From NCBI GenBank assembly GCA_964512635.1, contig CAZEJB010000007.1, positions 27,148 to 91,147 on the forward strand: 64,000 nt of DNA, written 5' to 3'. How positions within the stretch are numbered: position 1 is the stretch's first letter; each line of letters begins with the position of its first letter. Made by a program: the position numbers and the translations under genes. This stretch comes from an uncultured Planctomycetales bacterium. Lineage in GTDB: Bacteria > 4484-113 > JAFGCY01. Positions 46,418 to 50,620 of the stretch are shown one piece after another. The notes under the pieces were generated by a model, which did no database searches, was not told the DNA's origin, and worked only from the letters and a program-made list of their open reading frames with translations.

Positions 46418-48451
46418 CTACTCCTGCCCTTCATACATCTGGCGCAGGTTCTCCACCACCGCCGGGTCGGCCAGGGTGGTCGTGTCGCCGAGTGTGCGGC
46501 CCTCGGCGATGTCGCGCAGCAGGCGGCGCATGATCTTGCCGCTGCGGGTCTTGGGCAGGTCGGCGGTCAGGATGATCTCTTCGGGCCGCGCGATCGCGCC
46601 GATCTTGGTCGCCACATGCGCCTTGAGCTCGTCGATGATGTCGGCGGGGTGGGCTGAGCGCGCGGACAGGGCCGCGCTGCTACCCTTGAGGGTTACAAAG
46701 GCGACGATGGCCTGGCCCTTGATCTCATGGCTGCGGCCGACGACTGCACTCTCCGCCACCGCCGGGTGATCCACCAGGGCGCTCTCCACCTCCATCGTGC
46801 CGATGCGGTGGCCTGCCACGTTGAGCACGTCGTCGACACGGCCGAGGATCATAAAGCGGCCATCGCTGTCGCGCTTGGCACCGTCGCCGGGGAAGTACAG
46901 GTCGCGGCGCGGATTGCCGTTGTCATCGACCCACTTGCTGAAGTAGGTCTCCTGGAAGCGCTCGTCGTCGCCCCAGATCGTGCGGAGCATACTGGGCCAG
47001 GGCCGCGTGATGCACAGCAGGCCGGAGCGGCTGGCCGCGCCCTCCATCGGCCGCGCCTTCTCGTCCACAATCGTCGCGCTGATCCCGGGCAGGCAATAGC
47101 CGGCATAGCCGGGCTTGCTGATGTGCAGCCCCGGGAGTGTGGTGATCATGATCCCGCCGGTCTCGGTCTGCCACCAGGTGTCGACGATCGGGCAGCGCCC
47201 GCCGCCGATATTCTCGTGGTACCAGATCCAGGCCTCAGGGTTGATCGGTTCACCCACGCTGCCCAGCAGGCGCAGGCAGGACATGTCATGCGCCCGCGGG
47301 TGCTCCTCGCCCCACTTCATGAAGGCGCGAATCGCTGTCGGCGCGGTGTAGAACACGCTGACCCGGTAGCGCTCGATGATGTCCCAGAAGCGGTCGCGCT
47401 GGGGATAGTCCGGCGCACCCTCGTACATCAGCACGGTCGCGCCCATCTGCAGCGGGCCATAGACCACATAGCTGTGCCCGGTGACCCAGCCAATGTCGGC
47501 GGTGCACCAGAAGATGTCGTCTTCCTTCAGGTCGAATACGTATTTACATGTGTTATACGTCACCACGCTATATCCGCCCGTGCTATGTACGATGCCCTTG
47601 GGCTTACCGGTGGTGCCGGAGGTGTAGAGGATAAACAGCAGATCCTCGCTGTCCAGCCGCTCTGCGGGGCAATCAGCCGAGGCGTCTTCCATCAGGCGGT
47701 GGTACCAGTGGTCGCGGCCCTCCTGGATATGGCAGGGGAAGGGCTCGCCGGCGCTGCGCTTGACCACGACCACGTTCTCGATGCTGGGACAGGCGCTGCC
47801 CTCGAGGGCCTTATCGCTCTCGGCCTTGAGGCGCACGATATTGCCGCGGCGCCAGCCGCCGTCGGCGGTGATCAGCAGCTTGCACTGGCTGTCGTTGATC
47901 CGGTCGCGCAGGCTTTCGGGCGAGAAGCCGCCAAAGACCACGCTGTGGATCGCGCCGATCCGCGCGCAGGCCAGCATGACCACCGCGGCCTCGGGGATCA
48001 TTGGCAGGTAGATCGCCACCCGGTCGCCCTTGGCGATACCCAGTTTCTTCAGCACATTGGCGAACTTGCAGACCTCGCGGTGCAGCTGCTGGTAGGTCAG
48101 CGTGCGTTGCTCGGCCACGCCGCCCTCAATACCCGGCTCGCCCTCCCAGATGATCGCGGCCTTGTTGCGCCGCCAGCCGGTCAGGTGCCGGTCGAGGCAG
48201 TTGTGGCTGAGGTTCAGCTTGCCGCCGAGGAACCACTGGCTGTGCGGCGGCTCCCACTTCAGCACGGTATGCCAGGGCTCAAACCAGTCCAGCTCGCGGG
48301 CCTGATCGGCCCAGTAGCCCTCCCAGTCGCTGTGCGCCAGGCTATACAGCGCCTCGCTGTTCACCGTCGCCGCAGCGACAAAGTCAGCGCCGGGCGCGAA
48401 TTCGCGCTCCTCGACCAGCAGATCGCTGATATGGGTGTCCTGCTCGCTCAT
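46418..48451 (-). CDS. acs: Acetyl-CoA synthetase (AMP-forming)
   Basis: MSEQDTHI... ...[11 protein letters not shown]... ...WWQTETGG... ...[31 protein letters not shown].... Full-length Acs. The plus-strand ORF 46727..48526 is a shadow. Confidence 0.9.
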
Positions 48452-48480
48452 ACTCTGATTATAGGCAGGGCGCGCTCTGC
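48393..48480. repeat. Direct repeat copy A (native acs 5' end plus promoter)
   Basis: About 85% identical to 50532-50620 over roughly 90 nt. Both copies contain ATG ([17 protein letters not shown]...) and cctataatcag. Confidence 0.6.
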
Positions 48481-48522
48481 TCTCGAGTCGCAAAAAATGC
48501 ATGAAGACGTGTTGGAACTGGT

Positions 48523-49449
48523 CTAGTCCGGGTTGCCTGCATCGAGGAATGGGTTTGGCTCGTCTGCGCGGTGCAACTTTCCATGCCAGGGAACAAGCTG
48601 GCCCGGCTCGAAGTAGAGGACCTGAAAGTCGTCCTGCAGAATCTTGTCATTATTCTCACCGCAGACCACTACACGCCAGACGCTGGGTTGGCGATTGCCA
48701 ATCTTGGCCGGGTCTGTTTCAAGCTTGTGGCTGGCGGAGTAACTCGTGGGCTCAATGCGCTGAATACAGATCGCGCCGGGTTCCCATACTTCCGGTTCAA
48801 AAGTCTGATACACACTACCGCTGATGGGGTTTACCGCCGCCGCCATGTTCATGTATTGCATTGAGCGGCTCAGTGTCATCCAGTCCTTGATCTGCCCCGG
48901 CTCCTTCAACTGGGGACAGAGTTCCAAACCATCCTGGGGCAGTTCCCCGTGTGCTACGGCGTAATCAATCACCTTGGCGACAATGGTCTTTGGAGCAAAC
49001 GTGACGCCTTCTCCCAGATCCAGTACGCCAGTCATGCGTTTTTCTGCGGGTGTCAGGTCTGCAAGTTTGTCGGTATAGATGAAGCCGGCGGGCAGGCTGA
49101 TGATTTCTCCCGCCTGTGCGGGCGGCTCTTGTTGGGGTGTGCTTCCAGGTACAACAGGCAGTTCTGAAAGCAACTCACCGAAGGACTGACCGAGCAAAAT
49201 CCTGCGGCTTGCCTCTGGGCTTTCGGTTGTTTCCCGGGCTGGTGGCCCTCCAGTCCGGCCTACCTGAGTTTTAGTATTCGTGGAAGGCGCTGGCTTGGGA
49301 TTGCAGGAAAGCAGGCCGAATACAAGAATCAGCACTGCTAGAAGCAAGGCCCGCGTCTCCAACCACCTGGGTGGAACGAGCGCTCGATAGTTCATCCTTT
49401 GCATATGGTCGCCTCTATCGCATCGGTATGCCTTCCTCGTTCCACCCAT
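48523..49449 (-). CDS. Hypothetical exported protein (paralog pair, member 1) in a low-GC insertion
   Basis: N-terminal TM/signal. The C-terminal half is similar to 49460..50209 ([24 protein letters not shown] vs GRFYESFQSREWTPGGIFIERMPDD). Confidence 0.45.
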
Positions 49450-49459
49450 AGACCCAAGA

Positions 49460-50209
49460 TCACTTAGGCATCATAGGCATATCTGGGTTCGCCTCCGCAG
49501 CGTCGATGATTGCCTGTTCATAGGCCGGATCAGGCTTGCCATTGGCAATCTCGTAGTCGTCCAGCAGCACCGAACCCTGCTGCGCACCGTAGATTATGTA
49601 GTGGAACATCACCGGCGCGTTGGTGCCATCTTCGCTTATGTAGTTGGGAAAGCGCGAGAGCAGAAAGTCATCAGGCATCCGCTCAATGAATATTCCGCCA
49701 GGAGTCCATTCGCGAGATTGAAAACTCTCGTAGAATCGCCCGGTAACAGGGTTGATTCCCTGACAACAGGCCAGGTAGCGCTCATCATCGCTTAGATTCT
49801 CGATGTACTGCACGCCTTGAATCTGCTCTGCATCCTGATAGAGGGCAAGCCCATTCGCCGGCAGACTGCCGGTGGTCAAGAGCTGGTTGGATGCCCGCCG
49901 CAAAGTACTAGCTACGGTATGAAAGTTGCCATTGCTCAGCAGCATGACCCCCAGTATCTTCTGTTCAGCAAGGGATGGCTCGTGGCCCAGCGCACCGGCA
50001 GGATCATGAATCCCAAACTGGAAGCCAATGGAGGCTTTGGAACGCAGATCGCTTGAGTTGGCCGGTATCAGGCCGGCTGCTGCTGTATAGGTGCTGAAGT
50101 CTGTGGTCATCATGGTCTTGCAGTCTTCCTCATTCTGACCAAAAACCCGATGGACACCCGCACAGGCAAGCACGGTCGCGATTACAAGCGGAAGCAAGTG
50201 AAGCTTCAT
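49460..50209 (-). CDS. Hypothetical exported protein (paralog pair, member 2)
   Basis: Signal peptide (MKLHLLPLVIATVLACAGVHRVFGQNEED). Paralogous to 48523..49449. Confidence 0.45.
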   Translation of the reverse strand: MKLHLLPLVIATVLACAGVHRVFGQNEEDCKTMMTTDFSTYTAAAGLIPANSSDLRSKASIGFQFGIHDPAGALGHEPSLAEQKILGVMLLSNGNFHTVASTLRRASNQLLTTGSLPANGLALYQDAEQIQGVQYIENLSDDERYLACCQGINPVTGRFYESFQSREWTPGGIFIERMPDDFLLSRFPNYISEDGTNAPVMFHYIIYGAQQGSVLLDDYEIANGKPDPAYEQAIIDAAEANPDMPMMPK

Positions 50210-50531
50210 AAATACCTCCCTTTAAAACGACATCCTAACTCGGCCAGTATAACCACGCTCAATGCCTTGTCAATGAATGTTCCCAAAGTTTCCCACTCCA
50301 AGCAGGAATGTCATCACCTATAAGTGTTGTTGCATGTAGTGCGAGGCCCAGTTTAATGCTGTTCATAGTCTATATGCGCAACTTTGACACTGTTTACCCA
50401 CAAGGCAAATCTGTTTCGAGCGAACCGCTCGGTCTATTCATGCTCATCTTGATTCTAAGCTGACTGAGAAAGTACAGATCTTGATTCAACATTCTGACCA
50501 CTCTAGAGTCAAACGCGGACATCCACAATTG

Positions 50532-50620
50532 GCGCGAACTCGCGCTCCTCGACCAGAAGGTCGCTGATATGGGTGTCCTGCTCGCTCATGGGCTGATTAT
50601 AGGCAGCGCGGTCGTCGGCT
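50532..50620. repeat. Direct repeat copy B (degenerate duplicate of the acs 5' end and promoter)
   Basis: See 48393-48480. It encodes only a truncated remnant, [20 protein letters not shown].... Confidence 0.6.

Follow-up and report, generated by a model that had tools for sequence, protein, structure and literature searches.

How did a segment of foreign-looking DNA come to lie between two copies of the start of acs, the gene for acetate--CoA ligase, with the gene itself left intact? The locus is part of a 64,000-nucleotide (nt) stretch of DNA, called the window below, from an uncultured Planctomycetales bacterium (assembly GCA_964512635.1, contig CAZEJB010000007.1, positions 27,148 to 91,147 of the forward strand). 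An imperfect direct repeat of the acs promoter and 5' end bounds 2,058 bp of lower-GC DNA that carries two genes for predicted lipoproteins, referred to here as the cargo. We consider it probable that this arrangement arose when a small circular element, bearing a look-alike of the acs 5' end as its attachment site (attP), integrated into the 5' end of acs by a Campbell-type crossover, and that the element is now decayed or dependent on functions supplied in trans, resembling a cis-mobilizable element (CIME).

A diverged direct repeat of the acs 5' end bounds the insert

Gapless and gapped local alignments agreed that the direct repeat is exactly 80 nt long with 73/80 positions identical (91%) and that similarity ends abruptly at either edge. 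The first-pass annotation of this DNA, made from the sequence alone, had recognized the direct repeat and the presence in it of the acs promoter and 5' end, both of which are borne out. Its estimate of about 90 bp at about 85% identity, at 48393-48480 and 50532-50620, is replaced by the values and coordinates given here. The features that define the locus are as follows, in window coordinates.

46418..48451, minus strand: acs (acetate--CoA ligase, 677 amino acids [aa]), the intact target gene, identified with Pfam and NCBIfam
48393..48472, minus strand: repeat copy A (attR-like), which includes TATAAT (-10 box), the start codon ATG at 48451, and codons 1-20, continuous with intact acs
48423..48451, minus strand: 29-nt identical core, ATGAGCGAGCAGGACACCCATATCAGCGA, with its other copy at 50561-50589; the longest common substring and likely crossover region
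50509..50589, minus strand: acs remnant open reading frame (ORF) of 26 codons behind the native acs promoter, with acs-like codons 1-20 followed by IVDVRV and a stop
50531..50610, minus strand: repeat copy B (attL-like), the same 80 nt (73/80 identical), 8 nt downstream of the A1 stop; the acs remnant starts in it
50619..52055, minus strand: A1, host gene lying upstream (478 aa; weak match to TPR), which marks attL's chromosomal side

Read on the minus strand, the repeat consists of CTGCCTATAATCAG, 3 variable nt, ATG, and acs codons 1-20; in copy B, CGCGCTGCCTATAATCAGCCC-ATG precedes 19 further acs codons. Beyond copy B come six unrelated codons and a stop (...FAPIVDVRV*), which gives the 26-codon remnant. 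The second copy thus holds only a short remnant, as the first-pass annotation had said, and where that annotation had it abut the A1 stop codon (TAG, 50619-50621), the edge of the copy lies 8 nt away. A 26-mer taken from the repeat occurs twice in the window, compared with 0.00 occurrences expected in shuffles, and a word-7 blastn search found no third copy in the window. Precise alignment of the two copies places the likely crossover in the 29-nt core, a perfectly shared stretch that spans the ATG through codon 10.

The seven differences between the copies comprise one upstream of TATAAT, three directly before the ATG (AGT versus CCC), and three in codons. All three of the coding differences are synonymous and fall in third positions (GAT/GAC, CTG/CTT, and GAA/GAG). 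Since 21% of the possible single-base changes in the differing codons are synonymous, this outcome has a P value of 0.009 under random change and, by our own estimate, of ∼0.04 once selection on the intact copy is allowed for. This pattern suggests that one of the copies accumulated its changes inside a functional acs gene rather than as a duplicate in decay.

A perfect 14-bp palindrome, GCGCGAATTCGCGC, which contains an EcoRI site, lies at 48394-48407 at the inner edge of copy A, within acs codons 15-20. Its counterpart in copy B (50532-50545) has one central mismatch. The palindrome could be a protein-binding site or a mere consequence of the coding sequence.

The target gene and its start signals

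The assignment of acs rests on Pfam matches to ACAS_N, AMP-binding, and AMP-binding_C and on a match to the NCBIfam acetate--CoA ligase model at 997 bits. Its start, MSEQ..., aligns with acs N termini from other phyla. Since its -10 box precedes the ATG by 6 nt, acs appears to be transcribed as a leaderless mRNA. The same spacing recurs in the window: TANNNT exactly 6 nt before the ATG was found in 5/24 host genes, versus 0.08 expected per offset. These genes start at 22919, 45361, 48451 (minus strand; acs), 52055 (minus strand; A1), and 54981 (minus strand; a paralog of A1), with near-misses at the starts at 13390 and 55881 (minus strand). None of the five has a Shine-Dalgarno site, and the pattern suggests widespread leaderless transcription in the host organism. 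If acs is leaderless, an element landing in its first 60 nt must supply both a -10 box and an ATG for the gene to be expressed, and this need would explain why the repeat includes the promoter.

Composition and coding content of the insert

On the minus strand, the order is A1, copy B, a 321-bp spacer, the gene for a 249-aa protein, the gene for a 293-aa protein, a 50-bp spacer, copy A, and acs. The segments between the repeat copies are as follows.

48523..49404, minus strand: cargo gene 2, encoding a 293-aa predicted lipoprotein (lipobox LLSC), Shine-Dalgarno GAGG; paralog of cargo gene 1
49460..50209, minus strand: cargo gene 1, encoding a 249-aa predicted lipoprotein (lipobox VLAC) of an uncharacterized family, Shine-Dalgarno GGGAGG
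50210..50530, no strand: AT-rich noncoding spacer of 321 bp, GC 0.436

In 300-nt windows, GC is 0.46 to 0.57 within the insert versus ∼0.65 to 0.69 outside it. GC at third codon positions (GC3) is 0.62 for the two cargo genes versus 0.75 to 0.89 in eleven neighboring genes. Both cargo genes have Shine-Dalgarno sites (GGGAGG and GAGG), unlike the often leaderless host genes, and their family is unrelated to the neighboring genes. Composition and translation signals alike point to the insert as foreign DNA. The spacer holds a near-consensus, sigma-70-like promoter site on the minus strand (TTGACA-16-TATACT at 50273-50246). Pfam searches of its reading frames found no coding relic or pseudogene fragment, and Rfam, searched on the insert at E values up to 1, gave no match. 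Much of the first-pass description of this segment is therefore upheld: a low-GC insertion of about 2 kb (2,058 bp, with the GC3 values above) that carries two tandem paralogous genes for exported proteins, with lipoprotein-type signal peptides, and an AT-rich promoter region.

Elsewhere in the window, a 369-aa ORF at 55929-57038 (plus strand) with a GC3 of 0.64 lies in another stretch of lower GC (∼0.55 at 56.1 to 57.0 kb). It matched no Pfam, NCBIfam, or PHROG model and may be another horizontally acquired gene.

The composition of the cargo bears on an origin by duplication, which the first-pass annotation had offered as an old duplication followed by insertion. If the acs promoter and 5' end had been duplicated in tandem at the locus before foreign DNA was inserted, or if the insertion mechanism itself had duplicated 80 bp of its target, two direct copies and a truncated remnant beside A1 would also result. 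We disfavor this account and regard it as very improbable. The first form requires two independent events, and for the second we know of no transposition mechanism that makes an 80-bp target duplication. A divergence of 9% would need a long time, yet the cargo retains a GC3 of 0.62 next to genes at 0.75 to 0.89. A decaying remnant should also gain nonsynonymous changes, but all three coding differences are synonymous, and a junction of the empty-site type, described next, seems to persist in the population.

Independent assemblies of the locus

The locus is also covered by Logan contigs from two sequencing runs, SRR14271333 and SRR14271334. Logan contigs are built at k=31 from k-mers occurring more than once, and Minia3 is used to simplify the graph (PMC12424806); those of this organism are generally short (∼2 to 5 kb). 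Three of them end or start at the core. L001 extends in from the A1 side, and its terminal base is precisely the final base of the copy B core (...CCC+core). L002 starts one base before that core (C+core+C) and runs through copy B into the insert; gene calling on L002 recovered the acs remnant at 2-82. L003, from the other run, passes from the insert into copy A and terminates one base past the core (T+core+T). L002 is unbroken through the other identical stretches of the repeat, of 14 and 20 nt.

All three contigs contain copy-specific bases and therefore confirm the junctions of the filled arrangement independently of the NCBI assembly. A chimera formed by the assembler at the shared 29-mer might be suspected, given that misassembly typically strikes at repeats and that one NCBI contig (120,569 bp) is the source of the window. 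However, L001, L002, and L003, from two runs, cover every junction with copy-specific bases. An assembly artifact is effectively refuted.

The positions of the breaks carry further information. Because the copies share 29 exact bases and k is 31, the two copies alone cannot create a branch in the graph. The breaks between CC+core and C+core+C and after T+core+T therefore call for one extra 31-mer, C+core+T. This 31-mer links upstream sequence on the A1 side with downstream sequence on the acs side, as the junction of an empty site would. The contig ends thus imply that genomes without the insert coexist with insert-bearing genomes in both runs, and presence or absence of the element seems still to be polymorphic in the sampled population. 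The insert-free genomes could represent the ancestral allele or a precise deletion. The predicted empty-site sequence would read ...CTATAATCAGCCC + ATGAGCGAGCAGGACACCCATATCAGCGA + TCTGCTGGTC...

Had the reciprocal 31-mer T+core+C, expected from a circle or a tandem junction, been present, L002 and L003 would each be one k-mer shorter; the shapes of the contig ends show no sign of it, which is a weak negative. The predicted sequence of the circle junction would be ...CAGAGT + core + CCTTCTGG... Within the insert, Logan contigs differ from the window by single-nucleotide polymorphisms, two in L002 and three in L003 (48905, 48909, 50124, 50133, and 50134). Therefore, the element-bearing population is not clonal and includes more than one strain.

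Proposed integration of a circular element

Direct, diverged copies of a target around foreign DNA arise naturally only by single-crossover insertion of a circle that bears the segment. We propose that the element was a 2,138-bp circle that would have contained one 80-bp acs-5' look-alike (attP), the AT-rich promoter region, and the two lipoprotein genes. A single crossover into the acs 5' end, most likely within the 29-nt identical core, would have placed at attL, beside A1, the native upstream half followed by the element's first 20 acs-like codons, now the 26-codon remnant. At attR, the element's TATAAT box would have been joined to native acs, with the gene kept intact. Lacking a recombinase of its own, the element would be decayed or trans-dependent in the manner of a CIME. 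For this course of events, we infer the circular intermediate, the position of the crossover, and the involvement of a recombinase.

The 9% divergence of the repeat copies, the unameliorated GC of the cargo, the synonymous-only coding differences, and the probable empty-site allele together indicate that the divergence predates integration. The element would therefore have brought its acs-5' segment from a related but different host. As one of two alternatives, the first-pass annotation had read the repeats as attL and attR of a site-specific integration. Duplication of the target 5' end by integration is the best-supported part of that reading; with no cognate recombinase in the window, a site-specific and a homologous crossover fit the data alike.

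Several observations weigh against integration of such an element. Pfam, NCBIfam, and PHROG scans of the cargo genes and the spacer reading frames found no integrase, excisionase, or transposase, in agreement with the first-pass statement that no integrase lies inside the insertion. The sole tyrosine recombinase among the scanned ORFs of the window (∼21.8 to 63.2 kb) is encoded at 38437-39504 (minus strand), 9 kb away. In searches of plasmids, Joint Genome Institute (JGI) metagenomes, and viral contigs, neither the element nor the 80-bp site turned up again, and no other element targeting acs was seen. The argument from synonymous differences is built on three substitutions, a small sample. 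Finally, the empty-site junction is deduced from contig ends and not read directly, and a third acs-5' copy elsewhere in the genome could mimic the branch in the graph.

The absence of an integrase in or beside the insert would suit RecA-dependent homologous recombination, in which circular foreign DNA is inserted over the ∼80-bp acs-like segment with no dedicated recombinase and no strict att site; on this view, the empty site would represent either the ancestral allele or a deletion between the direct repeats. No inverted-repeat architecture for recombinase binding was seen around the core either, and no identical stretch exceeds the 29-nt perfect core. A length of ∼29 nt is about the minimum for efficient homologous recombination in Escherichia coli. 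Nevertheless, we consider this account unlikely. The circle must still have gained an acs 5' fragment from a related genome, most simply via earlier excision of an acs-integrated element, and 80 bp at 91% identity is a poor substrate. Furthermore, a recombinant junction is indicated only in the core, L002 being unbroken across the identical stretches of 14 and 20 nt.

Recombinases and classes of element

The best matches of the recombinase at 38437-39504 are XerC and XerD; it scores 234 bits against TIGR02224, below the equivalog cutoff, and its gene neighbors are unrelated. It is most simply taken as a housekeeping Xer protein. No transfer genes were found in the insert in Pfam and PHROG scans, and the window contains no tRNA or tmRNA that could serve as an integration target.

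Three classes of element were rejected. A transposon or insertion sequence does not fit, because an 80-bp duplication is too long for a target-site duplication (2 to 14 bp) and a transposase is absent; there are no terminal inverted repeats at the ends of the insert, and the 80-nt duplication is imperfect. An integron cassette was rejected for want of an attC-like inverted repeat, an Rfam match, and an adjacent intI or attI. A Xer-dependent integrative mobile element (IMEX) was rejected as well: there is no dif-like site, and the Xer-like gene is 9 kb off with nothing linking it to the insert.

In the properties by which integrative elements are recognized, the insert has direct repeats with a conserved target gene left intact and has no site-specific recombinase of its own. 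Like a CIME, it keeps attL and attR without integration or transfer genes. This state could have been reached by decay if internal deletion had removed the integrase and other genes from a much larger island or prophage seated at the acs 5' end, of which the insert would be the last remnant; this is a sub-case of integration at acs that implies no present mobility. Both att-like repeats are kept around 2 kb of cargo with no recombination genes, and the formation of CIMEs by decay is documented (PMC5704250). On the other side, neither pseudogene fragments nor relics occur in the spacer, the insert forms a compact unit of a promoter and two genes, and nothing separates it from a small element that was always mobilized in trans. 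We hold the larger-island origin to be decidedly improbable.

Also doubtful, and in our view quite improbable, is that the unit is a currently active cassette without an integrase that is moved in trans, targets the leaderless promoter and start of acs, and supplies the -10 box and start codon. If this were true, an uncultivated phylum would have a cassette system bounded by a gene 5' end and carrying uncharacterized lipoproteins with a confidently predicted fold unmatched in the PDB, and continuing insertion and excision would account for the presence/absence polymorphism in the sample.

Elsewhere in the window, a subtilase with a C-terminal dockerin is encoded at 24678-26336 (plus strand), ∼2.4 kb from the gene for an 815-aa protein with cohesin, fn3, and redoxin-like regions (28704-31151, minus strand). 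The two may form a cohesin-dockerin pair.

A family of predicted lipoproteins defined by the cargo

The two cargo proteins are 24% identical over 143 aa (E value of 2e−16). Their signal peptides are of the lipoprotein type (...TVLAC and ...GLLSC), and the proteins are probably exported and lipid anchored. No model in Pfam, NCBIfam, or PHROGs matches either of them, and no Pfam model matches nine close homologs of normal size. A HMMER search of 1.84 billion representative proteins placed 148 clusters in the family at E values of up to 0.001. Members are mostly 230 to 260 aa long and have in common the motifs GINPITGxFYxxF...WxPGG and VWxxxVYGExPGxVL; an N-terminal lipobox cysteine is present in many of them. 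The AlphaFold (AF2) model of cargo protein 1 has a predicted local distance difference test score (pLDDT) of 88 and a predicted template modeling score (pTM) of 0.81; a Foldseek search of this model against the PDB gave no match below an E value of 0.09.

In a separate collection of 5.8 billion proteins, cargo protein 1 matched only itself and its paralog in the same genome, and a profile search of that collection with the cargo alignment returned only the two window proteins. The cargo proteins had no match in plasmids (tblastn), and no member of the family was found in viral contigs. In JGI metagenomes, the family occurred on three short contigs with ordinary neighbors: a multipass membrane ORF and two ORFs read by eye as sigma-factor-like and PilT-like, respectively. 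Few homolog loci were recovered overall, on contigs of 1 to 2 kb with ordinary chromosomal surroundings.

One member of the family, P0009 (JGI sample 3300075153), is 473 aa long and contains two copies of the domain. Considered with the adjacent cargo genes here, this fusion indicates that tandem duplication of the cargo domain recurs.

Searches for relatives of the locus

An empty site was sought through A1 in Genome Taxonomy Database (GTDB) representative genomes, with no match. A1 has no relative except a paralog in the same genome at 53248-54981; in the 5.8-billion-protein collection it matched only itself and this paralog, and the A1 family had no further member there. The paralog is 577 aa long (32% identity, E value of 2e−45). 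Between the two genes, in the region 50619-54981, lies a divergently oriented class-3 lipase gene (52202-53236). The closest acs in genome contigs, at 69% identity, belongs to a metagenome-assembled genome of “Candidatus Sumerlaeia,” and the remaining matches come from mixed phyla. The host lineage is without close relatives in the searched collections. The first-pass annotation had suggested looking for the repeat elsewhere as attB or attP. That search came back empty, with no third copy in the window and zero occurrences of a degenerate pattern of the acs-5' core in JGI metagenomes and in viral contigs.

Relation to known systems and significance

The closest parallel for a substitute gene end comes from phage 21 and element e14, which integrate in icd of E. 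coli. They carry a substitute end of the target gene with mostly synonymous differences, and integration regenerates the gene and displaces a pseudo-end. Both replace the 3' end of icd (∼165 bp) and encode their own integrase. The acs insert likewise carries a substitute end of a protein-coding target with synonymous coding differences; unlike phage 21 and e14, it replaces the 5' end and the -10 promoter box and has no integrase. We know of no description of the acs 5' end or promoter as an integration site.

The acs insert shares with integron cassettes a small size (one or two genes) and the lack of its own recombinase; cassettes are mobilized in trans by an integrase encoded elsewhere. Unlike the insert, cassettes have an attC palindrome and insert at attI beside intI. 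The acs insert is instead bounded by a duplicated gene 5' end and has its own promoter, with no intI or attI adjacent.

Elements with tyrosine recombinases integrate at the 3' ends or, more rarely, the 5' ends of housekeeping genes, and the flanking direct repeat carries the gene end, which preserves the target gene (PMC5704250). As in IMEs (integrative and mobilizable elements) using such recombinases at 5' ends (PMC5704250), the acs insert targets a gene 5' end, its direct repeat includes that end, and the gene is undisrupted. Those IMEs encode an integrase and mobilization functions, which the insert lacks.

CIMEs, described in Streptococcus, are decayed integrative and conjugative elements (ICEs) or IMEs that keep attL and attR without integration and transfer genes (PMC5704250). 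The acs insert resembles them in that att-like direct repeats bound foreign DNA with a small cargo and no integrase, excisionase, or transfer gene. It differs in that the host is an uncultivated deep lineage and not a Firmicute and the target is the acs 5' end with its promoter. Furthermore, no helper ICE or IME and no cognate integrase was found for the insert in the window or the searched collections.

The kind of element is already known, and the acs insert is a further case at another target. What it documents is a delimited horizontal gene gain, with boundaries resolved to the base, in a lineage with almost no sequenced relatives. The target gene was preserved by replacement of its promoter and start, and the gain is probably still segregating in the population. 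The cargo, moreover, defines an unannotated family of ∼250-aa lipoproteins without a solved fold. The acs insert leaves the current understanding of integrative elements unchanged; its interest rests on the likely live polymorphism, on an att-like site by which a promoter is replaced in a host with apparently leaderless genes, and on the uncharacterized cargo family.

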